12,487 bases of DNA from a virus: UHGV virus genome UHGV-0355038. One strand, written 5' to 3'. Shown one piece after another: positions 1-12,487 of this stretch (its first letter is position 1; every line of letters begins with the position of its first letter). The notes beneath the pieces were generated by a model. It did not search any database, was not told the DNA's origin, and was given only the letters and a program-made list of their open reading frames with translations. The position numbers and the translations under genes were made by a program.

Positions 1-106
1 CATAGCCAAAGGTGCCTGTGTATTTTTTTGAGTTTCAATTATTGCATTTCTCACCAGCGGTGGTAGTGCATATATCGGATAAGGATTTTCTGGTGCAAGT
101 AAGCAC
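1..106 (-). CDS. small hypothetical protein, N-terminal part only (runs off window start); paralog of the 357..584 ORF
   Basis: Minus-strand translation from the ATG at 106..104 gives MCLLAPENPYPIYALPPLVRNAIIETQKNTQAPLAM..., open to the window edge. A GAGAGG Shine-Dalgarno-like motif lies about 5 nt upstream. It shares the pattern PYP.YA.P...NAIIETQ.N..A.LAM with the 75-aa ORF at 357..584. Not in the ORF track because it is partial. Confidence 0.35.
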
Positions 107-143
107 ATAAAAGCCTCTCTTTTCATTAATGGGTTAGTAAAGT

Positions 144-179
144 AGCAGCAACTCCCGCTATAATAGCGAAATAGCTGCT
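144..179. promoter_or_regulatory. palindromic operator-like site upstream of the first small-gene copy
   Basis: AGCAGC (144..149) and GCTGCT (174..179) flank a central palindrome CGCTATAATAGCG that contains a TATAAT -10-like hexamer. It is the counterpart of the better-preserved site at 620..656. Confidence 0.3.
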
Positions 180-356
180 GTTCAGACCTAATGTTCTGAG
201 AAATACAGAATATCTGTAGATCTGATGTTTAATAAACCGATAAGGTTAATTCAGTTCATACTGTGTTATTTACCACGAAATATCATTCATGTTTCTCATT
301 CTTAACACCTCCTAAAATTATTTCACTAACACCTTCCCCCCGGTCTTTTTCCTTTC

Positions 357-584
357 TCAGGAATCAGCCAGAACCATAGTGTAAATATTAACGGGCCCAC
401 GTAAATTTCCGGGGTTGCACACGTCAATCTGATTCTGACAGGCAATTGACATCGCTGTTAATAATGATGTTGTAGTCATAGCCAGAGATGCTTTTTCATT
501 GTGTTGAGTTTCAATTATTGCATTTCCAGTCATTGATGGTTGCGCATATACTGGATACGGAGTATCCGGTTTGATGTAAGACAT
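357..584 (-). CDS. small hypothetical protein (75 aa), tandem paralog of the partial ORF at 1..106
   Basis: ATG start with an AAGGA Shine-Dalgarno motif about 8 nt upstream (minus-strand sense ...AAAAAAGGAAATATTTATG). The N-terminus MSYIKPDTPYPVYAQPSMTGNAIIETQHNEKASLAM aligns with the copy at 1..106. A palindromic operator-like site lies about 36 bp upstream. Confidence 0.45.
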   Translation of the reverse strand: MSYIKPDTPYPVYAQPSMTGNAIIETQHNEKASLAMTTTSLLTAMSIACQNQIDVCNPGNLRGPVNIYTMVLADS

Positions 585-619
585 AAATATTTCCTTTTTT
601 CGTAATAACTTTCGGTTAT

Positions 620-656
620 AGCAGCTATTTCCGCTACAATAGCAACAATAGCTGCT
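620..656. promoter_or_regulatory. perfect 10-bp inverted repeat operator-like site (AGCAGCTATT / AATAGCTGCT), 17-bp spacer
   Basis: AGCAGCTATT at 620..629 and AATAGCTGCT at 647..656 are exact reverse complements. The spacer TCCGCTACAATAGCAAC holds a TACAAT -10-like hexamer. The site sits between the small ORF start (584) and the AlpA-like gene end (690). Confidence 0.4.
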
Positions 657-689
657 ATACAGACTGGATATACTGAAAATACAGACAGT

Positions 690-917
690 TCATCTGGTCT
701 GTATCCAGCAGAGAAGGTCACTTAACAACCATCCGCAAGATTTCTTTCCGATAGACTTACGTGGTGGAAATGTTCCCTCCCGTTCAAGTTTCCACGCTTG
801 TGTACGAGAAATTGACGTGATCTCATATCGTTCCTTTTCACGTACCAGTCTGTCGCATTCAATCCCATAAGCTTTCAAAATGACCAGACGCTGTTCATCT
901 GTTAATGGAAGCCACAT
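690..917 (-). CDS. AlpA-family (phage Vis/AlpA-like) helix-turn-helix transcriptional regulator
   Basis: The track ORF 690..938 begins with a TTG codon. An internal ATG at 917..915 is preceded by a perfect AGGAGG Shine-Dalgarno motif at 5-nt spacing, so I place the start there (75 aa, MWLPLTDEQ...). The C-terminal segment ITSISRTQAWKLEREGTFPPRKSIGKKSCGWLLSDLLCWIQ matches, from memory, the AlpA pattern (S.STiyR...G.FP..+.+G.+s.gW...ei..Wi). Confidence 0.6.
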   Translation of the reverse strand: MWLPLTDEQRLVILKAYGIECDRLVREKERYEITSISRTQAWKLEREGTFPPRKSIGKKSCGWLLSDLLCWIQTR

Positions 918-1608
918 ACTACCCTCCTGATATATCAATACTTTTTATTTCCGGCATGAGCATGAAATGACTAAGTTTCCCGGATAAACAATGAGTGAAA
1001 GTCACTATCATTCATCCAGCCAACACCTTACAAATAAAATGTAATACTATGATTTTTATAGGTCAAAATACTGAATTGAAATGTTAAAATGGCTTTTAAT
1101 AGAAAAAATAAAGACATATAGAACCAAATAAAAACAAGCCGCGACCAATAAAAACAAAAATTAATATTAAAAATCCATTATGACGATTTTTGTTGACTAA
1201 AATTAGGTTGGGATATATAAATAAATCCATGTGAAATTCAAACAAAGCATGGAGGAGTCGCAGGAAGGTGAAATATTTCCATCTAATTTGTGATAATCAT
1301 CACAAAAATAAGCTACAACAAGCGGAGGAAAAGACAATCTGTTGCTGAACAGACAGAAGCAGGCTACGAATGATCGGAAAATGAAGCAAATACGCTTATA
1401 CAGAAGACGCAGGGGTAACTGACGGAGACAATCACAATCAGGAGAAAATGATCGTAAATAATGTATAAAATCTCAGGATATAAACAAATGTACACAAGCT
1501 ATCCACGTAATCTGCGGCTGGCTCAGGATTAACGTTTCATTTCAGTGGACGACATCGATTCTGTCTGACAGTGGGCCAATATGTGGCAAGCAGAAAACTT
1601 CTGACATC

Positions 1609-3240
1609 ATGGTAACTCGGACAATGCAACAAAAGTATGATCGTGTTTTATCTGGCGAATCCCACCCATTCCCTGGCATATACGAGGCGGTTTCCGAACA
1701 ACTCCTTTTGCTCATCTTTAAGGCTCGTCAGCTATATCAGAATCCAGAATATCGCCCCTGGTTTGAAGAACAGCACAGAGTTCTCTCTGCATTACGTGCT
1801 AATACAGAGCTCTTGAGAATATTTAGAGAACAAAGAAACGCGGAAGAACCAGAGCTTATTATTAAAGAATCTACATTACCCCTACTCACTAATTCTAATC
1901 TTACAGATGCGCTTAATATTATGTGCCATTTATACAATGGTTTTGATGAAGGAAATATCAGTCTGAAAACCTGGGGGGCGATGCAAGAGGTACAGACAAC
2001 ATCAACCTTTATCAGCCCGGGACCGAGAACCTGGAAAACACCTGAACTGGCAAAGTTTGTAGGAGATGATTTATTTAATATTCTGACTGAATGTAAAGCC
2101 TGGAGTTCACCAATTCCAGCAGAAACCCGACAGGGCTATTGCCATCAGGATCTGTCTGTTGCACACTCCTGCACCTCAGAGTTACTGGCACACCTGAATC
2201 AATACCATGAAATTGATGAATCAGCAATACTTGCCAGAGTTATTGGTATGACGGTTAACGGATTCTACAAGAAAAATAATACAGACCTCCCAGAATGGCT
2301 ATCCCCCTTTAAAGAGGAACATAAAATATTCAGAGATTGTCTGGAGCAAAAGACCGAGGATGTAATCAGACTGAAAGAACAACTGTTGAAAACAGGACGT
2401 TCAGAATTCGTGAATAATTTGTGTCGGGTCGCCAACTGGTATGAAATTAAGTCAATATACGATGAATATGTCCGTCTTTATGCCAATGAAATCATTGGTT
2501 GGTTCAACAAAACCATGGAATATTTTAAACCAACAGATTTTATCCGATATACATGGAAATTCGCAACAGTTACTCCAGATAAAGAGACAGAAACCAAGCA
2601 TACAACTGCATGGGAAAAGGATTATTGCCAGATAACTATACAACGTGATGAACTTCTGAGATTGATTCACACGAATACCCTTCAGGATGCAGTAATTTAT
2701 CTTTGCCATTGCCTGCAGAAGAAATACAAGAAATCATCCCAAAATGAGATAGAGTTTCCAGGAATAAAACCTCCGGCATCAGAGAGTGAAATTAATATAA
2801 CAGATAATTTTGAATTTTATTCTCTCCTGGAGCTCAGTAAAGATAATGAGAGGCGGCTGGAAACATTTCAAAAATGGTATGAAAAAAATAAAGTTTTGTT
2901 AGAAAGTCATAAACAAAAACGAACAGAGAAGATTGACGTTGCCGTACGACTTGTAGGGCTGAAAGCCTATGATCTGCATGAAGGGATTCCGGATAGTCCA
3001 AAACGAAAAGTTAAAGATGGCATAAATGAAGACATCAAAGCCGATACCAGTTTACGCCTGCCAAAGACAAATATAAGTGATACGTCGCTAAACCGTTATC
3101 GCCGCACTGTTAAGGAGATTATCAATAACGAAATCGACGCATTCCTGTTGGAACAGAAGAAAAAAAATAAAAGATTTCCCTACAGTGAAGATAGAGATGT
3201 GATTCGACCTTTATGGGGAAAATGCCTGACCGGGCAGTAG
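1609..3240 (+). CDS. hypothetical protein, 543 aa, no family recognised
   Basis: Long uninterrupted ORF; antisense ORFs inside it are short. A terminator-like hairpin follows the stop. No Walker A, HExxH or other motif I can name with confidence. The start is ambiguous between ATG 1609 and ATG 1624 (no strong Shine-Dalgarno for either). Confidence 0.65.
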   Translation: MVTRTMQQKYDRVLSGESHPFPGIYEAVSEQLLLLIFKARQLYQNPEYRPWFEEQHRVLSALRANTELLRIFREQRNAEEPELIIKESTLPLLTNSNLTDALNIMCHLYNGFDEGNISLKTWGAMQEVQTTSTFISPGPRTWKTPELAKFVGDDLFNILTECKAWSSPIPAETRQGYCHQDLSVAHSCTSELLAHLNQYHEIDESAILARVIGMTVNGFYKKNNTDLPEWLSPFKEEHKIFRDCLEQKTEDVIRLKEQLLKTGRSEFVNNLCRVANWYEIKSIYDEYVRLYANEIIGWFNKTMEYFKPTDFIRYTWKFATVTPDKETETKHTTAWEKDYCQITIQRDELLRLIHTNTLQDAVIYLCHCLQKKYKKSSQNEIEFPGIKPPASESEINITDNFEFYSLLELSKDNERRLETFQKWYEKNKVLLESHKQKRTEKIDVAVRLVGLKAYDLHEGIPDSPKRKVKDGINEDIKADTSLRLPKTNISDTSLNRYRRTVKEIINNEIDAFLLEQKKKNKRFPYSEDRDVIRPLWGKCLTGQ

Positions 3241-3248
3241 ATCACTGA

Positions 3249-3280
3249 GGGGATAACAGCCCGGTTATCCCCTGTTTGTT
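3249..3280 (+). terminator. intrinsic terminator-like hairpin between convergent genes
   Basis: GGGGATAAC (3249..3257), loop AGCCCG, GTTATCCCC (3264..3272): a perfect 9-bp stem. It is followed by TGTTTGTT and starts 9 nt after the stop of the 1609..3240 ORF. Confidence 0.5.
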
Positions 3281-3326
3281 CTGCTTCAGGTTGCCAGAGC
3301 TCCAGGAACACGAGGCAATCGGCAAA

Positions 3327-3923
3327 TTATGCGGCTTTTCCATTAACAGATTCGGCCACAAGAACAACACCGTGTTTGTTTCGATCAGGATGTTCACTCC
3401 AGATTTCTGATTCAGGAATGCTTTCCCCATCATAGCAGATCCGATCACCATCAAACGGATAATACCGTGCGGAATCTGTAGCTAAGATAAACACCTTAAG
3501 ATTCGTTGAACGACGCGCTATATGCTGCCAGAGGGCTTTACCTCCTTCATATTGCTCGTTATCACTTAATAGTATAACGCCTGCTTTTGTGGCTATTGTT
3601 TCATAAACAAACGTAGCAAGGCTAACATCACGTACAGCACCATCGACAACAATCCCTTCAATCTGAGCAACGTCCTGTTCTTCCCAGAATTTCCGGACAA
3701 ACACCCCTTCAAGTCGGGGACGACGCTGAAGCTCCAGAGTGGCAACAACCTTATGGCGAATATCACCATCAATAACAGAAGGTGCAGCTTCGATTACCGC
3801 AGCGAACGGAGTCTTTGGATCCCAGATGATCTGGTAAAGCACACCCTGAATAGTTACTCCATCCAGTATCGAAAAACGACGAGCTACAGTAGCAGGGGAG
3901 TAAGACATTGGAATGACAGCCAT
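3327..3923 (-). CDS. hypothetical protein, 198 aa, no family recognised
   Basis: ATG-initiated ORF on the minus strand, convergent with 1609..3240. The composition looks like a real globular protein (e.g. ...IATKAGVILLSDNEQYEGGKALWQHIARRS...). I could not assign a fold by eye. Confidence 0.6.
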   Translation of the reverse strand: MAVIPMSYSPATVARRFSILDGVTIQGVLYQIIWDPKTPFAAVIEAAPSVIDGDIRHKVVATLELQRRPRLEGVFVRKFWEEQDVAQIEGIVVDGAVRDVSLATFVYETIATKAGVILLSDNEQYEGGKALWQHIARRSTNLKVFILATDSARYYPFDGDRICYDGESIPESEIWSEHPDRNKHGVVLVAESVNGKAA

Positions 3924-4233
3924 TTTATGGCCTAAAATTTGAAAACATCAGTATCAATACTGACCTCATCAGTCTGAGCATATATTGATAAAGTTTTTAT
4001 GTTTACACTCAATAAATACCTTACCAAACAACTAATAGCGATGTCTACATTGCCATTCGACATGCTTACAATTTTTGTCAACAAGAAAGTGAATTTATAT
4101 CAACGGTAAGAAGTAAACACGAGGACACCAAAACCAAATGTACACACTTTTGTGCTTTGTGTCCCCTGTGTGTACCCAAATGACAAACTGCAAGAAAATC
4201 TAGGCACACACTTATCTAACTTATTGATTTAAA

Positions 4234-4279
4234 TGGTGCCGATAATAGGAGTCGAACCTACGACCTTCGCATTACGAAT
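4234..4279 (-). repeat. 46-nt 3' fragment of a tRNA gene (most likely tRNA-Thr CGU, thrW-like): integration-site (att) repeat
   Basis: Minus-strand sense reads ATTCGTAATGCGAAGGTCGTAGGTTCGACTCCTATTATCGGCACCA: anticodon loop with CGT, variable loop, T-arm GTAGG-TTCGACT-CCTAT, acceptor 3' strand TATCGGC, discriminator A and CCA. The sequence 5' of it (GGATTCTTATA) does not continue a D-arm or acceptor 5' strand, so this is a partial copy and not a gene. Confidence 0.65.
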
Positions 4280-5026
4280 TATAAGAATCCGCTTCTAATT
4301 CAAAGTATTACCCCATCAACACTGTGCTCACACGTCCCACCACATCAAAACATGTAAAGCCTTGCAAGCCATTGTGAGGCCTTATGTGTCTCAGTTTTGT
4401 CCCACCTTGTATTATGACTTGCATAGCCAATGAAGATAAACGTGACGACAAACAGCGCAGCAGTCTTCTTTTCTTTCACACTTTCCCCAATCAGCATACA
4501 TACTTTCTACCATAACTGTAGTGAATGTCTGTTATGAGCGAGCAAAAGAGATTCAATTACCGGGGAATTACTCCGACATAAGCTCTCCCAGAAACACCGG
4601 AACAGCGATTCGCATATTCTCTTCTATACTTTCAGTCTGACCGGCTGGAGATTTCATAGCAAGAAAATGGATGAGCCAAGACCTATGCGGGAAAGAGGCT
4701 GAGGAAATAATTGCCGATAGCACTGTGCCCGACGAAAAGTTAATCTGGCACGCAATGACGCGCGTCCTTGGGGCATCAGGAATCAGAGAGCCAACTTAAC
4801 AACCCATTATATATTATTTAACCGGACTGTTACATGTACAAAGTTCAATGATTAGTGATTCTGTGACGCCACATACAACCTAAGCCCCTGATATAAAACC
4901 AGTCTATGCAACACCTAAAAATCATATATGATAGGGTGATAAGTCAACGCGCAGTATAAAAATTAAGCTAAAAAATGCTTTCAGCATAGTGAATCTATTT
5001 CACACTACATAATTAAGGATGAAAAA

Positions 5027-5872
5027 ATGACTGCACCAGTAATTAGTTTTATCAATATGAAAGGTGGGGTTGGTAAAACAACTTTATGCGTTGGGATTGC
5101 TGAGTTTTTAGCCAACCATATGGGGCGCAAGGTTCTAGTTATCGATATTGATCCTCAATTTAATGCCACTCAGTCCTTAATGGGGCATTATGATCGAGTA
5201 GAAGAATATATGACTGCCCTTCGCCCTAATAATCAAACCATTCGAAAGATTTTTGAGCTTCCAAATTCATTAATGGAAGATGAAAAGAAAGTGACACCAG
5301 AACAGGTCATTACTAAAGTTTCAGACAATCTTGATATTATCTTAGGTGATATAAACATTATCTTTGATACTAACCAAGAGGGTATTAGAATAAAAATGTT
5401 GCGTAAATTCATCACCGAAAATGACTTAAAAGAAAGTTACGACTATATCTTTATCGATAGCCCCCCAACAATCTCATTATTTACAGATACCGCACTCCTT
5501 GCTTCTGATTATTATCTTACTCCGGTTAAAATTGATCACTACTCGGTGCTTGGAGCAAGCAGTTTAAATAGCGTTATAAGAAATATGCGCACACATCATG
5601 AGAAAGAAATCAAGCAAGTCGGTTACATTTATACAAACACTGATGCTGAAATGACCAATAAAACAAGGGAAATTAAAGAACAATTCGAAAACCATACTCA
5701 ATTTACAAATTTTTATTTCTTTGAAAATCAATTAACCTACGTGCGTGATTTAATGGTAGGTTATCAAGGAAATATTCCTTCTTGTTATTCAAAGTCACGC
5801 CAAGATATAGAAAAGATCTGTAACGAATTTATTAACAGAGTGGCTCACTTGGAAGGTAACACAAATGAATAA
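5027..5872 (+). CDS. ParA/MinD/Soj-family P-loop ATPase (deviant Walker A)
   Basis: AAGGA Shine-Dalgarno motif 7 nt upstream of the ATG. N-terminal INMKGGVGKTT (deviant Walker A KGGxxGK[ST]), VIDIDPQ (typical ParA DxDPQ motif) and a hydrophobic Walker B-like IFIDSPP. 281 aa, no N-terminal HTH extension. Confidence 0.75.
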   Translation: MTAPVISFINMKGGVGKTTLCVGIAEFLANHMGRKVLVIDIDPQFNATQSLMGHYDRVEEYMTALRPNNQTIRKIFELPNSLMEDEKKVTPEQVITKVSDNLDIILGDINIIFDTNQEGIRIKMLRKFITENDLKESYDYIFIDSPPTISLFTDTALLASDYYLTPVKIDHYSVLGASSLNSVIRNMRTHHEKEIKQVGYIYTNTDAEMTNKTREIKEQFENHTQFTNFYFFENQLTYVRDLMVGYQGNIPSCYSKSRQDIEKICNEFINRVAHLEGNTNE

Positions 5873-6263
5873 ACAATTAATTAAAGCGCTCAATAAAGCT
5901 AATAATATGCCCATGACCAAAGAAAACTTCTTAGGCTTGGTAATTATGTTGATTCTTTCAAAAGAGGTTTTTAGATCAAATTTTGATGTTAGTAAATTTA
6001 TTAACAAAACCTTCAAAATATCTTTTTTGAATTATGCTGTACGGTCAAGAACTTTGATGTGCGCTAAAATTTGCAGACATATTAATGAATTAAGTGAGAA
6101 TGACATAAAGATGGCTTATACGCATTTCTTAAACAACATTAACACATTAGACATTATTTTTAATGATGCAAATAAAACAAGCCAAAAACCCACATCTAAA
6201 AGCAAGCATGCTATAAGGAATTTAAATATTTGGATTAATGCAAATAAAAAGGAAGAAGAATAA
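5865..6263 (+). CDS. hypothetical protein, 132 aa, Lys/Asn-rich, no family recognised
   Basis: ATG overlaps the upstream stop by 8 nt (ATGAATAA). A GGAAGG Shine-Dalgarno motif lies about 8 nt upstream. Very AT-rich codon usage shared with its neighbours. Confidence 0.6.
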   Translation: MNKQLIKALNKANNMPMTKENFLGLVIMLILSKEVFRSNFDVSKFINKTFKISFLNYAVRSRTLMCAKICRHINELSENDIKMAYTHFLNNINTLDIIFNDANKTSQKPTSKSKHAIRNLNIWINANKKEEE

Positions 6264-6928
6264 TGCTCACGCAGGATCCCTTCAACATTGGAAGAGATGT
6301 AAATTATTTTAGAGCGGAGGTGCAAAAGCACCTCAGAACCACTGATGAAATAAACAAATCAGTATCAATATTTAGGCAAATAAGTCTTTGTAATACAATT
6401 TTAAGTCACAATCCTAATCTAAATCACTCTTCTTATATAAAAGGTTTTATATATGATACCTTAAACTCCTTAATTGCCATTATAAAAAAAAGAGAACGGT
6501 ATCTCCAACTGAACTTCCGCTCAATGGTGGAGCATGTGGCCAGAATAAGCCTCAATAAGAACTACAATGGTGGGGATTTTGACCAAACTGTACGTCGTAG
6601 AGACTTTGACTTCTTAAAAGCCCAACAAGTCGATGAAGGCTGGTCTTATTTACATAATGTCTATATCAACGCCTGTTATTATGTTCACTCCTCCCCCCAA
6701 GCGAACCTAAATGTTACATCAACATTTATATCACTTATGGAGGGAGATTGTAATTCAACACAGCATAAAATGGTGAAAAAACTTCATGAGGTAGTATCGG
6801 CGCTGATGAGAATCATTATAAAGTATTATCATCAGCATATCTCAAACATTTTCTTTAGAAACAAAAAGGATTTAGAGAAAATAATGGGAAAAAGCCTTTA
6901 TTCATATTATACCAGCTTAGACAATTAA
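6263..6928 (+). CDS. hypothetical protein, 221 aa, no family recognised (speculative HEPN-like R-x4-H motifs)
   Basis: Start overlaps the upstream stop by 1 nt (TAATG). An AAGGAAG Shine-Dalgarno motif is upstream. It contains R-x4-6-H strings (RSMVEH, RIIIKYYH) that could be coincidental. Confidence 0.6.
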   Translation: MLTQDPFNIGRDVNYFRAEVQKHLRTTDEINKSVSIFRQISLCNTILSHNPNLNHSSYIKGFIYDTLNSLIAIIKKRERYLQLNFRSMVEHVARISLNKNYNGGDFDQTVRRRDFDFLKAQQVDEGWSYLHNVYINACYYVHSSPQANLNVTSTFISLMEGDCNSTQHKMVKKLHEVVSALMRIIIKYYHQHISNIFFRNKKDLEKIMGKSLYSYYTSLDN

Positions 6929-6965
6929 TTCTCTCATATTCATTGCGTAGAGCATAAATATCTAT

Positions 6966-7461
6966 CTAACCACCTAAAATGCCAGAAAATCTAGTTGTAT
7001 ACCGGTGCGAAAATATCTCGCGTTTCATCTGCCACTGCTGCTGAATGCCCTGCCCAGCGAAACAGAGTGTTTCCTTCCCGTCTTTTGCATTGAGGTGCTC
7101 CAGCACGCTCATTAACTTTTCGCTCCCAGGACCCAGCGCGTTATCGTCGAATAGGTTAGGGCATGCTCTGACTGAAGAAGTCCCCCAGCATTACCCCGGC
7201 TTTCTGATATCGGTGTCCGTCTTTCCATATTGCATCCAGACTCCCCGTTGCTACTGCAATGATATCCCGACTGTCCTGTGTCGGGATGAGCAGCTTCACC
7301 GACGCGCTGTTACAGTAGTACGACTCGTTCAACGCAAAGGGTATCGTGTAAAACCGATGATGACACTGCCGGCAATCAGCACTGACGTCAGCAAACGTGA
7401 GAAAGAACAGATAAGCCGAACGATTTAGGAAATGTTTGAAGAGACTGATATGTGGATGGTT
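6966..7461 (-). pseudogene. umuC: umuC-like Y-family translesion polymerase gene, 3' remnant, frameshifted and 5'-truncated
   Basis: Minus-strand translation gives ...FYTIPFALNESYYCNSASVKLLIPTQDSRDIIAVATGSLDAIWKDGHRYQKAGVMLGDFFSQ. After a frameshift near 7160..7175 it gives NLFDDNALGPGSEKLMSVLEHLNAKDGKETLCFAGQGIQQQWQMKREIFSHRYTTRFSGILGG-stop. This matches my recollection of the UmuC C-terminus (...HRYQKAGVMLGDFFSQ...NLFDDNA...GQGIQQQWQMKR...PRYTTR...). No intact ORF remains, and the upstream extent (possibly to about 7790) is uncertain. Confidence 0.6.
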
Positions 7462-7858
7462 TCAGTTTAAACGCCTTGAACCGTCATATTACCTAAGTAC
7501 AATCCGCTGTGACTGGCAATCATTCAATACTTGCACTATCAAAAGTGCATCAGCCAACCGCAGCACGTCTTGCATACGACCTGTCTGCGGTTTCAATCAC
7601 CTCTCACCACCAGTCCCATCAATAATAATTAAACAGCGCCTAAACAAAATAAATAACAACAAGTCAACAACCTCGACAGGATGCCGATGGGATGATGAAG
7701 AGATAAGAAAGAATAACTAGTAAAGCCCTAAAACGTCAGCGTTCAGACGCGTTTTTTACTTAACCGGTAACAAATACGTTGTATCATAGCAACATAAAAT
7801 GATTGTTCTAAATCAGATTAACTCCTCACTTTTGTACAATGTCGCTTACAGGTATACC

Positions 7859-9748
7859 ATGAAATCCGAGACGCTAACTGTCCAACAACTTTTTCAAGAC
7901 CGCCGACAATACTGTGTTCCATTCTATCAACGTGCCTATGTATGGACTCAGCGAAACCAATGGTCAGCTCTACTGGAGGATATCCTAGAGAAAGCACAAT
8001 CCCGGCTCTCGGGTACAAAACCAACTCCCCATTTCCTTGGTGCAGTGGTACTGGAACCTCAACCAAAAAAAGGATTATTCGGTGTAGATTCCATACATAT
8101 TATTGATGGTCAGCAACGATTGACCACTCTTCAATATGTTCTGGCATCCATCCGATTAGCATTACGTGCGACAGATCTTTCCAACTTAGAGCCTCTCATT
8201 TCGTCTTGCCTGAAAAACTCAAACGAAGACACAATGCGAAATAAAGAAGTAGAGCGCTTCAAACTGTGGCCAACTTTTCGGGATCAAACTCATTTTATTC
8301 AAAGTTTTAATGTTGAAAATATTGACGATATCCGGAATGTATTCTCTGATAGTTTCACGCAGCATGGTACGTTGCGTAAGCATTTTAATCACCCGCCATC
8401 ACTAGAAGCATTATGTTTTTTTACTGAAGCCTTTATAAAGTGGATTAAAATAGAAAATCACTCACCACGAGAAAATGCTGTAGCATTAATTGAGGCTGTC
8501 TTGACGGATCTGAAACTAGTAAGCATATTTCTCGAGGCTGAAGATGACGCTCAAATAATTTTTGAAACATTAAATGGCAGAGGTGCGGAACTTCATGCCA
8601 CAGATCTTATTCGCAATTATATTTTTATGTGCGCTGAACATGAAAATATTAATGCTGTTGAATTATATGAGAATGAGTGGAAGATCTTTGAAGATACGTA
8701 CTGGTCAGAAAGACAACGTCGTGGTCGTATTAATAAACCACGCATGGAGTGGCTAGTGCATGCAACATTGCAATCAGAAAGGCAACGTGAAATCGATCTG
8801 TCTCGTCTTTACAATGAGTATCGTGATTATGTAAGTAAGGACTTGCCTTCACAACGAGCAGATCTGCAAGTAAAGCGCCTCAAACAATATGCATCACAAT
8901 ATAAAGAATTGGTTGGTGGTTTTGGCACAACCCCCATCTCACACTTTGGACATCGCATCGCAGCCTATGATGTGACGACACTTTATCCGCTTGCTTTGTT
9001 CATTTCGATAGCTAACATCGCCGATGATGAGAAAGCAGCCATGTATAATGATCTTGTCTCCTACGTAGTACGAAGAGCCGTATGTGGCCTGACGCCAAAG
9101 AATTACAACAATGTATTTATGAATGTATTGCGGCACTTGTCTAAAACAGAAATTTCCAGTGTTGAGTTACGTAATATCCTCAATAGCTTAAATGGCGAAG
9201 CCTCACGTTGGCCTGGGGACTCAGAATTTCTCAACGCTTGCATCAATGCTCCACTTTATCCTGGCAGGCTCGACGCACCGAAAATGCGCTCAATGTTAAC
9301 GGAACTTGAAAGAGAACTTTGTCGCCAAGTGAAGACAGAGAAGCCTGATGTTCCAAATCTTTCTAACCTCGATATCGATCATCTTATGCCTCAAAGTTGG
9401 TATTCCTGTTGGCCTCTCGAAAATGGTCATATAGTGACAAATTCAGATGCTACGGTATTGAACCAAATTGTTCTGTCTGGAACCGATCTTACCCCAGAAC
9501 AGCTACTGGTAAGGAAACGGCAACAAGCGATAGCTACGTTGGGAAATCTAACTTTGCTTAACCTTAGCGTAAACCGTTCTGTTCAGAATGCTGTATTTCT
9601 GAAAAAACGTGATGCTCTCATCGTCCACACCAATCTACGACTGAACATTCCACTTATAGTTAAGGATAAATGGGATGAGGATGAAATCCTGGAGCGGGGT
9701 AAAAAGTTGGGGGAAATTGCATTGAAAGTATGGCCAAAACACGATTAA
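7859..9748 (+). CDS. GmrSD-family putative type IV (modification-dependent) restriction endonuclease: N-terminal DUF262 (ParB-like NTPase) plus C-terminal DUF1524 (His-Me finger nuclease)
   Basis: N-terminal YCVPFYQRAYVW and IIDGQQRLTTLQ (the DGQQR signature of DUF262). C-terminal LSNLDIDHLMPQSW (DUF1524-like D-H..P.S nuclease motif). The track ORF starts at ATG 7799; I prefer the in-frame ATG at 7859 (AGG 9 nt upstream; the conserved block then starts near residue 18), but 7799 is possible. Confidence 0.75.
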   Translation: MKSETLTVQQLFQDRRQYCVPFYQRAYVWTQRNQWSALLEDILEKAQSRLSGTKPTPHFLGAVVLEPQPKKGLFGVDSIHIIDGQQRLTTLQYVLASIRLALRATDLSNLEPLISSCLKNSNEDTMRNKEVERFKLWPTFRDQTHFIQSFNVENIDDIRNVFSDSFTQHGTLRKHFNHPPSLEALCFFTEAFIKWIKIENHSPRENAVALIEAVLTDLKLVSIFLEAEDDAQIIFETLNGRGAELHATDLIRNYIFMCAEHENINAVELYENEWKIFEDTYWSERQRRGRINKPRMEWLVHATLQSERQREIDLSRLYNEYRDYVSKDLPSQRADLQVKRLKQYASQYKELVGGFGTTPISHFGHRIAAYDVTTLYPLALFISIANIADDEKAAMYNDLVSYVVRRAVCGLTPKNYNNVFMNVLRHLSKTEISSVELRNILNSLNGEASRWPGDSEFLNACINAPLYPGRLDAPKMRSMLTELERELCRQVKTEKPDVPNLSNLDIDHLMPQSWYSCWPLENGHIVTNSDATVLNQIVLSGTDLTPEQLLVRKRQQAIATLGNLTLLNLSVNRSVQNAVFLKKRDALIVHTNLRLNIPLIVKDKWDEDEILERGKKLGEIALKVWPKHD

Positions 9749-9770
9749 TGCAATTAATAAAATGATTATA

Positions 9771-9794
9771 GCGGCCTTACATTAGTAAGGCCGC
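9771..9794. terminator. perfect 10-bp stem hairpin downstream of the GmrSD-like gene
   Basis: GCGGCCTTAC-ATTA-GTAAGGCCGC. The T-run is weak on the plus strand; on the minus strand it is followed by TATAATCATTTTATT. It may terminate either or both convergent transcripts. Confidence 0.4.
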
Positions 9795-9839
9795 TACTCA
9801 CTATTAAATCCTTTAATTTGCAACAAGAACAGCAGTGTC

Positions 9840-9971
9840 AGCCCTAGGTTTCGGACTTTGTACCGCTTATCTTGTCTTCAAAATCAGCTCGCATCCTGCA
9901 CAGTTCAGCGCATTACGTTGTAGATCTGTGTTCTGGTCATTTGTTGATACGCGAACATAGCCAATAAGCAT
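9840..9971 (-). pseudogene. pin: Gin/Pin/Cin/Hin-family serine DNA invertase, N-terminal stub only
   Basis: Minus-strand ATG at 9971..9969 translates MLIGYVRVSTNDQNTDLQRNALNCAGCELI, the near-invariant invertase N-terminus containing the catalytic-serine region (VRVST). A 1-nt loss in a T-run then shifts the frame (LKTR-stop); the +1 frame still reads FEDKISGTKSE before a TAG. Homology ends around 9830 where the GmrSD cassette begins. Not in the ORF track (too short). Confidence 0.7.
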
Positions 9972-10000
9972 GATAGCTCCTCCTGACAAAAACAGGAACG

Positions 10001-10474
10001 ATGCCATTTGCGCGCTATTTCTGCATTTTCATAAACGTTCAATTGGGAGAAGCGGCAAAACGGGATGTCGGAACCGGTAATAATCAACTCCCGGACATGT
10101 CCGCATTTGGTATGTCGCGAAACGGACAAACTGCCTGGGATATTCTCCCAAATGGTATGATTCGACAGGTTGGTACTGTGACACTGACGCCTGTTGGTAA
10201 TTTCAACGCAATTACTCTTGGTGGAGTGCTGTACTACACCCATTACTACAGGGTTAATTTCCCCAGACAATTCCCAAATGCACAAATAGCAACGCTGGCA
10301 ACACTAGCGAGTTACAGCTTTTCGACCCAGTCATCAATGGCTGGGAAATCACTGGCAACGCATCGCGATACTGATTCTGGCACTGACGTATCAAGAACGC
10401 GATTCACTGTGTCGTATACGACACCCAATCTCGGCGAAATTCCGACTTTGCATTTTGAAGCAATAGGATACTAA
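10001..10474 (+). CDS. alternative tail-fibre C-terminal (receptor-binding tip) cassette, S'-like, inverted relative to the expressed fibre gene
   Basis: 157-aa ORF; the frame is open from 9977. Its beginning ...INVQLGEAAKRDVGTGNN... parallels ...NALQLGTAATRDVGADNA... inside the minus-strand fibre gene, and both end in A(I/L)GY. The cassette has no obvious promoter or Shine-Dalgarno motif of its own. Confidence 0.55.
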   Translation: MPFARYFCIFINVQLGEAAKRDVGTGNNQLPDMSAFGMSRNGQTAWDILPNGMIRQVGTVTLTPVGNFNAITLGGVLYYTHYYRVNFPRQFPNAQIATLATLASYSFSTQSSMAGKSLATHRDTDSGTDVSRTRFTVSYTTPNLGEIPTLHFEAIGY

Positions 10475-10476
10475 AT

Positions 10477-10710
10477 ATGGAGAATATGTATTTCAGCCCA
10501 ACGACCGTTGGTTTTTATGTTTCTGAACAAGAGCGACCTGATGATGCGGTTGAAGTCTCGCCAGAGGTGGAGGCATTTTTGAGGGAGTGTGTTATCTGGG
10601 GAGCGGATACATTTAACGTAGAGCGAGATGCAGCAACGGTGACATATCCAACAGAACTGCTTGAATATGTCACCACCTACAACGCCCCCGTTAAATATCC
10701 TGCGGATTGA
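10477..10710 (+). CDS. small ORF downstream of the S' cassette, U'-like (alternative tail fibre assembly chaperone), possibly truncated
   Basis: ATG 2 nt after the S' stop (TAA-at-ATG), the same spacing as the fibre/Tfa junction on the other strand (TAA-ga-ATG). It is 77 aa, and its 3' end overlaps the 3' end of the minus-strand Tfa gene by 20 bp. The assignment is by position; I see no family motif. Confidence 0.4.
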   Translation: MENMYFSPTTVGFYVSEQERPDDAVEVSPEVEAFLRECVIWGADTFNVERDAATVTYPTELLEYVTTYNAPVKYPAD

Positions 10711-11101
10711 CAGGCCATACGGGTTTTGCTGTATCAACGCGCATCAGCAAGACCCGGTATTTTTTCCATTCAGATAACGCGGCGGTTTCTTCTGCCGTCG
10801 CGATTTCCGCATCAAAAGCATCCTGTCTCCAGGCTATTTCCTTATCAGCCATAGAACGCAATACCGTTCTTTTCTGTTCAGCCTGAATAATCTGTTGTTC
10901 AGCGGAGAGTGGCGGGATATCAATCCACGCAGGATTACCATTTTTATCAGCCCCCAGCGTTTTGCCTTGTGGCGCTACGCCTGTGTAAATTGCCATTGTT
11001 TCATCATCAACATCAACGCCATTTTCAGGCCATGAACCGGCGCTGATATATACCTCTTTTAGTGCTTTCGGATAGAAAGAGCCTTTATAAAATTTATTCA
11101 T
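10691..11101 (-). CDS. tfa: tail fibre assembly protein (lambda Tfa / Mu U family)
   Basis: C-terminal ...[27 protein letters not shown]... matches, from memory, the conserved lambda Tfa C-terminus (...[25 protein letters not shown]..WP). I place the start at the ATG at 11101, which is 2 nt after the fibre stop with GGGG upstream; the track ORF from 11131 would overlap the fibre gene. Confidence 0.75.
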   Translation of the reverse strand: [136 protein letters not shown]

Positions 11102-11103
11102 TC

Positions 11104-12487
11104 TTAATACCCCAGCGCGATAAAACAACAATCTTCGGTGCCCTCTCCGGATGGCGACCAGTTCTGAATACTGATATGCGTTCTGCTGGCAATACGCACA
11201 TTCATCGCGGCATTGTAGCCAGATGTTCCACGGTTTCCGGTCGCAAATAAGCCTGCATAGGGAAAAGCAAATGGTAAGGCATATCCAGCATCAGCTCCCT
11301 TTTGTGTTGCCACCATTCCCCACTGCAACATAAGTTTCACCGGGTTTCCTGTCGTCGCAATGCATGGAATGTAGATGTAGCCATTCCCTGACATCATTGA
11401 CCTGAAGCTGTCTAAACCCAGTAACTTCGAGGCATTATCTGCTCCAACATCTCGTGTTGCGGCGGTCCCTAACTGGAGCGCATTTCGGAAGGCTGATACA
11501 TCAGAAATATCAGCTCCATTAGCCGATTTCTGCATAGCTCCGGAGGCTTTATTTATCGTTTCGCCCAAACCAAGGTATGCGAGAAGACCAGCTACATCCT
11601 TTCCACTCAAATTAGTCAGCGTATTGTCCAGCGGTTGTTTGCCCGCCAGTGCGCTCTGTACTTCGCTTTTGCTGTAGGCATCCAGATCTTTAGGCGTAAG
11701 CGTAATATCCTTCGTGCCGTCAAACGGAACGCCGTTGATATTCCGTGCAGTCTGTAGTTTTGTGGCAGTTGCAGCATTACCAGTGGTGTTCTGATTACCC
11801 GTAGTGTTTACACCTGGAAGGTTAATATTTGCAGAACCGTCGAAAACAACTCCACCGATAGATCTTGCCGTCTGCAATTTCGTGGCTGTACTTGCATTAC
11901 CATTCAATGAACCAGTTAATCCACCTGTAACAGACAACGGACCTGAAACTGTTCCTCCGGTTGTTGGCAGTGCTCCAATATCTAACGGCGTCGGTTTCTG
12001 ATGTGTGCTATACATCGTATAAACAACACCATAGGTAACGCTGGAAGGCTTACTCGCTGAATATGTTGGCGAGGTATAAACAGAAACTGACGCATTTGCA
12101 GTACAATCCCAATGGATATTTACACTCGTCGCATAATTGCCAATCTCAACGTAAATATCATATGTATCGCCGGATGTGTTGATCCAGGCGAAATTCGTTA
12201 ATCCGACGGCTGTACGCTTCCACAAAGCCCCGGTAATTCCTTTGGGGTTTCCATTGCCTGCTCGTAGAACCAGTTCTGAAATGCCTGCCTGATGTGGGGA
12301 ACCGACGTTGTAACCAGCGCCACCAATCAATGCGATGTAAACGATGGAACTCGCCTGTGGCATGGTTACCGTTGCTAATTTGAACCAACCAGCACCACCG
12401 CTGAATGACATTGTTGTTGAGTTAAGCGTACCAATATCTTTCGGCGTCAGTGTTATATCCGCTGAAAGCGCCTTACCATTCACCTTA
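11104..12487 (-). CDS. stf: side tail fibre protein, C-terminal about 460 aa (5' end beyond the window)
   Basis: Repeated fibre motifs (DITLTPKD twice; ATKLQTARSIGGVVFDGSANI / ATKLQTARNINGVPFDGTKDI), Gly/Ser/Thr-rich composition, and an immediately downstream Tfa. The track methionine at 12483 is probably internal. Confidence 0.8.
   Translation of the reverse strand, partial: KVNGKALSADITLTPKDIGTLNSTTMSFSGGAGWFKLATVTMPQASSIVYIALIGGAGYNVGSPHQAGISELVLRAGNGNPKGITGALWKRTAVGLTNFAWINTSGDTYDIYVEIGNYATSVNIHWDCTANASVSVYTSPTYSASKPSSVTYGVVYTMYSTHQKPTPLDIGALPTTGGTVSGPLSVTGGLTGSLNGNASTATKLQTARSIGGVVFDGSANINLPGVNTTGNQNTTGNAATATKLQTARNINGVPFDGTKDITLTPKDLDAYSKSEVQSALAGKQPLDNTLTNLSGKDVAGLLAYLGLGETINKASGAMQKSANGADISDVSAFRNALQLGTAATRDVGADNASKLLGLDSFRSMMSGNGYIYIPCIATTGNPVKLMLQWGMVATQKGADAGYALPFAFPYAGLFATGNRGTSGYNAAMNVRIASRTHISIQNWSPSGEGTEDCCFIALGY

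Follow-up and report, generated by a model that had tools for sequence, protein, structure and literature searches.

Does a tail-fibre switch die with the gene for its recombinase? The question is raised by a stretch of 12,487 nucleotides (the window, from here on) that is catalogued as the virus genome UHGV-0355038 and that is E. coli chromosome, 99.3% identical over its full length to strain Ec-2977. On the minus strand of the window lies the beginning of a serine DNA invertase gene of the pinE type, cut off well short of its end, with the side tail fibre gene of a prophage on one side and a restriction gene on the other. Calling such a stub a pseudogene is routine and has already been done in RefSeq. 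The object as a whole is a degenerate Din inversion system, a modest variant of a well-known kind: a tail-fibre switch that has no invertase of its own and is inverted in trans all the same.

The identity of the stub comes first. Translated along the minus strand from 9971 to 9840, it reads MLIGYVRVSTNDQNTDLQRNALNCAGCELILKTR*, with the stop codon at 9869-9867 after 34 codons and out-of-frame sequence beyond. Restoring one T in the run at 9880-9883 lets the reading go on as ...CELIFEDKISGTKSE, giving a repaired peptide of 41 amino acids. This peptide matches the Resolvase N-terminal domain of Pfam (PF00239) at 37.5 bits, where the curated threshold is 23.3 bits (E 3e-9, residues 3-40 only). It also matches the Gin invertase structures 4m6f and 3uj3 (phage Mu Gin) in the PDB with E about 1e-18, and 37 of 40 residues are identical to those of Gin 4m6f. 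At the level of DNA, the window aligns with pinE of the K-12 prophage e14 from the pix site through nucleotide 122 of the gene, and one substitution and the missing T are the only differences over that distance. With PinE as the tblastn query, residues 1-34 match at 9971-9870 (E 8e-17) and residues 31-44, in a second frame, at 9882-9841.

A sequence-only reading of this DNA, made before any database search, had proposed a Gin/Pin/Cin/Hin-family N-terminus at 9840-9971 on the minus strand, frameshifted in a T-run and stopping after about 34 codons. The e14 alignment, the Pfam domain and the Gin structures bear out the family; the translation and the same alignment bear out the coordinates, strand, stop and frameshift position; and the tblastn matches constitute a significant alignment to a serine invertase, well beyond what chance would give. 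It was also right that homology fades some 40 codons in, for the strong match ends at nucleotide 122 and the fade runs over codons ~42-49. Where it erred was in calling the fragment unannotated: the RefSeq annotation, made by PGAP, has a pseudogene at precisely these coordinates, labelled 'recombinase family protein; frameshifted; incomplete; missing C-terminus'.

As a gene, the stub has the start of the N-terminal catalytic domain (PF00239) with its active-site serine, Ser9. The rest of the catalytic domain, helix E and the C-terminal HTH domain of a protein of about 185-195 amino acids are absent, and tblastn searches of the window and of a homologous 32-kb locus (L005) found no trace of PinE residues 45-184. 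The stub is thus a pseudogene fragment, a non-functional member of the Din subfamily, and a recombinase cannot be made from it. Its inner edge is blurred. Homology is lost between codons 41 and 49: for most alleles the strong match to intact pin ends at 9849, and beyond it comes a zone of diverged yet alignable pin, with about 16 of 24 positions identical in the alignment to e14 pinE. Some pin alleles carry the match to 9838, and blastn with the pin gene of one related locus, L011, extends it to 9827, so that by alignment the true pin breakpoint is near 9827. Between that breakpoint and the restriction gene stands a hairpin (fold -27.1 kcal/mol, z-score -5.9) that is terminator-like on the minus strand and also closes the restriction gene. 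The coordinates of these and the other features are collected in Table 1.

Table 1. Features of the 12,487-nucleotide window, grouped by region, with strand and basis or remarks.
Feature	Position	Strand	Basis or remarks
GmrSD-family type IV (modification-dependent) restriction enzyme	7859..9748	+	Convergent with the stub; Pfam, PADLOC
Replaced slot	about 7597-9826		Limits from comparison with L011
13-bp GC-rich hairpin	9768..9797	.	Between GmrSD stop codon and pin breakpoint; terminator scan
Fade zone	9827..9849	-	~23 nt of diverged yet alignable pin, codons ~42-49
pinE-type serine DNA invertase gene, 5' stub	9850..9971	-	Gene nt 1-122, codons 1-41
T4 run (T5 in pinE and sister copies)	9880..9883	-	1-nt deletion giving the frameshift; from alignments
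Predicted Fis-dependent recombinational enhancer (sis)	9887..9950	-	Assigned by homology to the Salmonella hin 5' coding region
Distal 15-bp Fis core (predicted)	9887-9901	-	GTGCAGGATGCGAGC
Proximal 15-bp Fis core (predicted)	9936-9950	-	GTATCAACAAATGAC
pin leader, pixR-to-gene spacer	9972..10025	-	Strong Shine-Dalgarno AGGAGG 7 nt before ATG
pixR crossover site	10026..10051	-	TTCTCCCAATTG AA CGTTTATGAAAA; core 10038-10039; 67 bp upstream of stub ATG
Invertible segment, 1,536 bp	10038..11573	.	Between the AA cores
Alternative Stf C-terminus (gp53-like), in-frame ORF part	10038-10474	+	
77-aa ORF, 'hypothetical protein' WP_001619155	10477-10710	+	Inside the invertible segment
tfa, tail-fibre assembly gene	10691-11101/11131	-	
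Current Stf C-terminus	11104-11573	-	
pixL crossover site	11560..11585	+	TTCGCCCAAACC AA GGTATGCGAGAA; inside stf; core 11572-11573
stf constant (N-terminal side) part, side tail fibre	11574..12487	-	Runs off the window; ORF list

The earlier reading had held that the stub anchors the interpretation of the whole right-hand region, and so it does, because what lies there is an invertible tail-fibre segment bounded by two pix sites. As in other Din switches, the crossover sites are 26 bp long, inverted with respect to each other and identical in their 2-bp AA cores. A generic repeat finder missed the pair, the sites being too diverged, and a targeted mismatch scan was needed. A pattern search matched pixR once, with no match expected by chance; the site has three mismatches to e14 pixR, and its inner half-site reads TTG where e14 has ACC. 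The mismatch scan found pixL, which matches the position of pixL in e14. We considered whether the change from ACC to TTG was a decay that locks the segment, and rejected it: the inner half travels with the segment, and inversion across TTG is seen. The segment holds Gp53-like_C and Caudo_TAP domains (Pfam), and in both orientations the Stf fusion stays in frame to a stop codon, ending in ...IALGY* in one case and ...EAIGY* in the other. In RefSeq the constant part belongs to a gene of 3,027 nt, annotated as 'prophage tail fiber N-terminal domain-containing protein', after which come lom and gpJ. The 77-aa ORF occupies the place of the second tail-fibre assembly gene in e14-type segments, and its product may be a short chaperone or a remnant.

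The same module is found on two kinds of prophage. In ML775, SCU-122 and APEC O1 it sits on e14-like genes with a Mu-type baseplate, and in CRE1493 a close relative of the segment, which shares its tfa protein, lies beside an intact pinE in an e14-like prophage of the Mu-type-baseplate kind. In the window it is attached to a 1,008-aa lambdoid Stf, and related records show lom and J following to the right of the window. The two attachments make the window arrangement a hybrid of two prophage types and imply that recombination took place within the fibre gene.

How was the rest of pin lost? About 298 of 5,426 complete E. coli genomes have the junction of the GmrSD-family restriction gene with the stub, and its surroundings in the chromosome are of at least three kinds. 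In SCU-122 and APEC O1 the neighbour is ssrA; in ML775 and BS74R-D it is paoABCD with a fragment of a LysR-family gene; in S3, in strain 164 and in the window itself there are other islands. The junction was absent from the phage collection, where only the intact invertases of e14-like myophages were found. Since no isolated phage in that collection carries the junction, the elements that bear it may be defective prophages, switching fibres with no virion to serve. The most telling relative is L011, which has a full-length pin and shares two flanks with the window, 7513-7596 (downstream of a dinI-like gene) and 9827-10052 (from pin nucleotide ~145 to pixR). Between these flanks L011 has a DUF4145 gene and the 3' 410 nt of pin, and the window has the single GmrSD gene. 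The common flanks thus show that DNA with the GmrSD gene took the place of a former cargo and of the 3' ~410 nt of pin. We rejected a simple insertion into pin, because the other half of the gene is missing on the far side of the GmrSD cassette. The event is a replacement or deletion by cargo exchange that removed the 3' three-quarters of pin. The sequence-only reading had dated the cassette insertion as later than the arrival of the invertase; the flanks held in common with the full-length pin of L011 support that order, and it is the insertion that has to be given up.

The frameshift is a separate event. The same junction with a run of five T occurs in TL-14, S3, ML775, BS74R-D, SCU-122 and APEC O1, and the deletion of one T is confined to the window-type lineage. 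With six strains keeping T5 beside the same junction, the alignments place the truncation before the T-run frameshift, which came later in one sub-lineage. In strains of one clone set, named '167' or 'NDM' (strain 167, for example), an IS903B lies at about window position 9800. The insertion sequence has replaced the GmrSD side there but has spared the stub, the segment and the hairpin-proximal 48 nt.

Against this background, what matters is whether the segment has moved since the gene was cut. SCU-122 and APEC O1, which both have the GmrSD-stub junction, differ by an inversion of 1,939 bp at 99.9% identity, and at each end of that inversion the overlap with the collinear flank is 20 bp and coincides exactly with a pix site. 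In the sister prophage that carries the junction, 68 genomes have one orientation and 79 the other, counting only matches in which the GmrSD 3' end, the stub, pixR and about 200 nt of the segment were found together; these are numbers of genomes and not of independent events, many of the genomes being clonally related. For the lineage of the window itself, we computed the product of inversion (window 1..10037, the reverse complement of 10038..11573, then the rest) and searched with 601 nt of it that run from the stub across pixR into the new neighbour. At 100% identity, T4 frameshift included, the product occurs in five complete genomes; a sixth has it at 97%. Fifteen genomes show the orientation of the window, and to these come at least 17 more that have lost the GmrSD side to IS903B. 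One inverted genome, WCHEC025985, was followed from end to end: it is collinear with the window to 10039, inverted over 10038-11576 and collinear again from 11557, with T4 kept and with the hybrid pix sites expected from exchange at the AA core. The locus therefore behaves as a Din switch does, with both orientations present and their junctions at the crossover sites, but the cognate invertase that should stand next to the segment is reduced to a stub. On the evidence of these deposited genomes, site-specific inversion has happened after the truncation and after the frameshift, and because it took place with no local invertase the catalysing enzyme must have been encoded elsewhere and supplied in trans. 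To see the stub as a mere relic, as it had been treated, is to overlook that the switch adjoining it is still operating. In WCHEC025985 (locus L016, 4771-7601), stf appears in the PGAP annotation as a pseudogene ('missing C-terminus') and about 900 nt carry no annotation, despite the in-frame fusion that we computed; a single indel in the inverted segment may be the cause.

Could the stub still be an inert scar next to a frozen segment, both orientations having been inherited from before the truncation? That it encodes no recombinase and is treated as a pseudogene by PGAP would fit, as would its conservation, which across seven loci showed no excess over the neighbours (6.6% variable columns; the GmrSD gene has 8.6% and the spacer 5.9%). 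Yet the junction is identical in the two orientations, and in the window lineage so is the T4 deletion, at 100% over 601 nt. The same truncation and the same frameshift would each have to arise twice, and the split of the sister prophage into two groups of similar size favours repeated flipping. We regard a frozen segment as very unlikely.

Nor does homologous recombination offer an easy way out. RecA might act on the short inverted repeats, or a double crossover with another prophage might exchange the segment, with no need of an invertase or an enhancer. An E. coli genome has several prophages with related tail-fibre segments (we found thousands of partial matches), and mosaicism is evident in the fusion of an e14-like end to a lambdoid stf. 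Against such a route, the overlap between collinear and inverted parts is about 20 bp, very short for RecA, and coincides with the pix sites; the hybrid sites are exactly those of an AA-core exchange; and the segment and its flanks are 99.9-100% identical in both orientations, which gives no sign of imported DNA. RecA is an unlikely agent here, if marginally less so than a frozen segment.

If the inversion is the work of a foreign invertase, what could make this segment a substrate for it? Din-family invertases are described in the literature as requiring a cis-acting enhancer bound by Fis. The enhancer of hin is 65 bp long, has a Fis site at each end and lies about 100 bp from hixL, and wild-type Hin is inactive without it (PMC3798978); its position and size are also given in PMC2724282. 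In this family the element lies within the 5' coding part of the invertase gene, and for gin this is said in the title of Kahmann et al. 1985, which those papers cite. Aligned with the hin locus of Salmonella, the stub is homologous throughout this region, including the TAATG segment between the sites that PMC3798978 names. G-N13-C 15-mers stand at homologous places, 64 bp from outer edge to outer edge, and the homologous interval is wholly kept: the truncation point lies 38 bp past the distal core, or about 60 bp if the fade zone is counted. We infer from this homology that the whole predicted enhancer is retained in the stub, and that it is what permits inversion.

The geometry is consistent with such a role. 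From pixR to the gene the spacer measures exactly 10 bp less than its counterpart in Salmonella hin (L013 3300-3360), so that the distance to the crossover site differs by one helical turn and the predicted enhancer would face the same side of the helix relative to that site. The T deletion falls 4 bp outside the distal core and thus leaves both the spacing of the Fis sites and their distance to pixR unchanged, though it could weaken the distal core. Apart from this deletion, the element differs from the hin enhancer in a distal core that is richer in G+C, particularly at its centre, and in being predicted here from sequence. As the stub is not more conserved than its surroundings, retention of the enhancer is possibly accidental, and we do not claim selection for it.

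A different use for the stub would be as a short functional peptide, one that interferes with other invertases, for example; it would have 34 amino acids here and about 44 in the T5 copies. The Shine-Dalgarno sequence and ATG are intact, and the hairpin terminator lies downstream on the same strand. What speaks against it is that no sigma-70-like promoter was found in 9700-10120, that the peptide would be without the dimerisation helix E and the DNA-binding domain, and that the frameshift alters its C-terminus in one lineage, where inversion goes on with no visible consequence. Of all the alternatives that we weighed, this seems to us by far the most improbable.

We return, then, to an enzyme acting in trans with Fis on the stub. 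There is good precedent for trans inversion. In K-12 the invertases PinQ and PinR of the Qin and Rac prophages invert the P segment of e14 (Kirigo et al., NAR 2025, PMC12529663), and the same paper finds a locked P segment in the Keio pinE deletion and suggests a role for such fibre fragments at the level of the host, namely the blocking of phage adsorption. The enhancer is not a subject of that paper. Deleting pinE completely would take the enhancer region with it, and this would explain the lock; the reading is ours and not that of its authors. Potential donors are plentiful, with pinQ-like genes in 2,751 of the 5,426 genomes and 3' parts of pinE in 1,753. Megablast found no second pinE-like 5' region in most of the genomes that carry the stub. 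The enzyme that inverts the segment is presumably some serine invertase encoded elsewhere in the cell. A 43-kb plasmid (NZ_CP083887.1) of NDM2, a strain named in the same NDM series as several of the stub-carrying genomes, has at 23989-24201 a recombinase gene that is 86% identical to part of pinE. Its product is a candidate for the invertase that acts in trans.

Put together, the history runs as follows. A Pin-type gene of the Din family stood at the cargo end of an e14-like prophage module, which in the window is joined to a lambdoid stf. A cargo exchange brought in the GmrSD gene and removed pin beyond about nucleotide 145, and later, in one sub-lineage, one T was lost from the T5 run. The stub side has kept every cis element, that is pixR, the spacer and the predicted 64-bp Fis enhancer in the first ~90 nt of the gene. 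With all of these in place, the 1.5-kb segment between pixR and pixL would continue to invert and so swap the C-terminal, receptor-binding part of Stf. The catalyst would be a serine invertase that another prophage or some plasmid provides, while Fis from the host sits on the stub. We consider this account, taken as a whole (a truncated pin, cis elements kept, inversion in trans with Fis on the stub), to be probable. That the stub has been retained as an enhancer, in an orphan phase-variable switch run wholly by the invertases of co-resident prophages and plasmids, is a further step, which we put forward tentatively and on which we lean slightly towards doubt. If it is true, the 5' 90-145 nt of pin live on as a non-coding element that regulates in cis, and an exchange of cargo at this hotspot can take away no more of the gene than lies beyond the enhancer. 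If it is general, short 5' invertase stubs in prophages mark live switches driven in trans, not dead ones.

The closest known system is the P segment of e14 with PinE, itself a member of the Din family alongside Gin of Mu, Cin of P1 and Hin of Salmonella, and over nucleotides 1-122 the stub DNA is nearly identical to pinE. The layout is also that of e14: 26-bp pix sites, of which the first lies upstream of the invertase gene and the second within the tail-fibre gene; a segment that holds two alternative fibre C-termini with tfa genes; and a type IV restriction gene beyond pin, mcrA in e14 and GmrSD here. The differences are that the invertase gene is cut to 122-145 nt and inactive; that the restriction gene is of another family and convergent rather than co-directional; that the segment sits on a lambdoid stf, with J and lom adjoining, and not on the e14 baseplate module; and that the inner half-site of pixR is TTG instead of ACC. 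With the PinQ/PinR system (PMC12529663), our locus has in common a tail-fibre segment inverted from elsewhere and an orientation that is polymorphic among deposited genomes. In that system, however, pinE is intact, whereas here the cognate enzyme is absent and all inversion must be in trans.

Several consequences follow. With the enhancer inside the invertase gene, a 5' stub can keep a switch responsive to foreign invertases, and this bears on how the 'recombinase pseudogenes' of prophages are interpreted. It bears as well on the phenotypes of pinE deletions, since a full deletion takes the enhancer too, and on the prediction of variation in tail fibres and receptor blocking among the E. coli clones that have the element, including strains named NDM, CRE and WCHEC.

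The GmrSD gene is one more cargo variant at a slot for defence genes beyond pin. Its product has both domains of the family, GmrSD_N (DUF262, PF03235, 118 bits) and GmrSD_C (DUF1524, PF07510, 72 bits), and matches the PADLOC profile mREase_IV at 1436 bits over 629 of 629 profile positions. In relatives the same slot is occupied by mcrA (e14), by a GIY-YIG nuclease (S51), by a GIY-YIG nuclease with a type II restriction-modification system (CRE1493) or by the DUF4145 gene (L011); S3 has the same GmrSD-type (DUF262) gene next to its stub, with a type ISP restriction-modification enzyme further out. The start of the GmrSD gene differs between sources: the ORF program begins it at 7799 (649 aa), and RefSeq and the PADLOC profile begin it at residue 21, position 7859 (629 aa). 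Within the shared block, variation is greatest just upstream of the gene, at 7700-7858, where 48% of the columns vary over seven loci.

Further left, three tightly packed genes on the plus strand (5027-6928) encode a ParA-family ATPase of 281 aa and proteins of 132 and 221 aa. The two partners of ParA gave no Pfam or PADLOC match, and ParA itself only a weak PADLOC hit to PDC-M28B. The block accompanies GmrSD and the stub in many genomes and could be an uncharacterised defence or partition module. At 6966-7428, as in RefSeq relatives, come back-to-back fragments, the frameshifted C-terminal end of a UmuC-like protein (DUF4113, minus strand) and DinI (7342-7428, plus strand); the ORFs of 127 and 94 aa listed for this neighbourhood (7045-7428 and 7436-7720) look spurious. 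In 1609-3923, a 543-aa ORF on the plus strand and a 198-aa ORF on the minus strand had no Pfam or PADLOC hit. The left part of the window, 1-4216, is found together with the rest in one complete genome only, Ec-2977, where it adjoins genes of a CP4-57-like island (YfjI and an AlpA-type HTH protein), and the conserved block begins at about 4217-4233.
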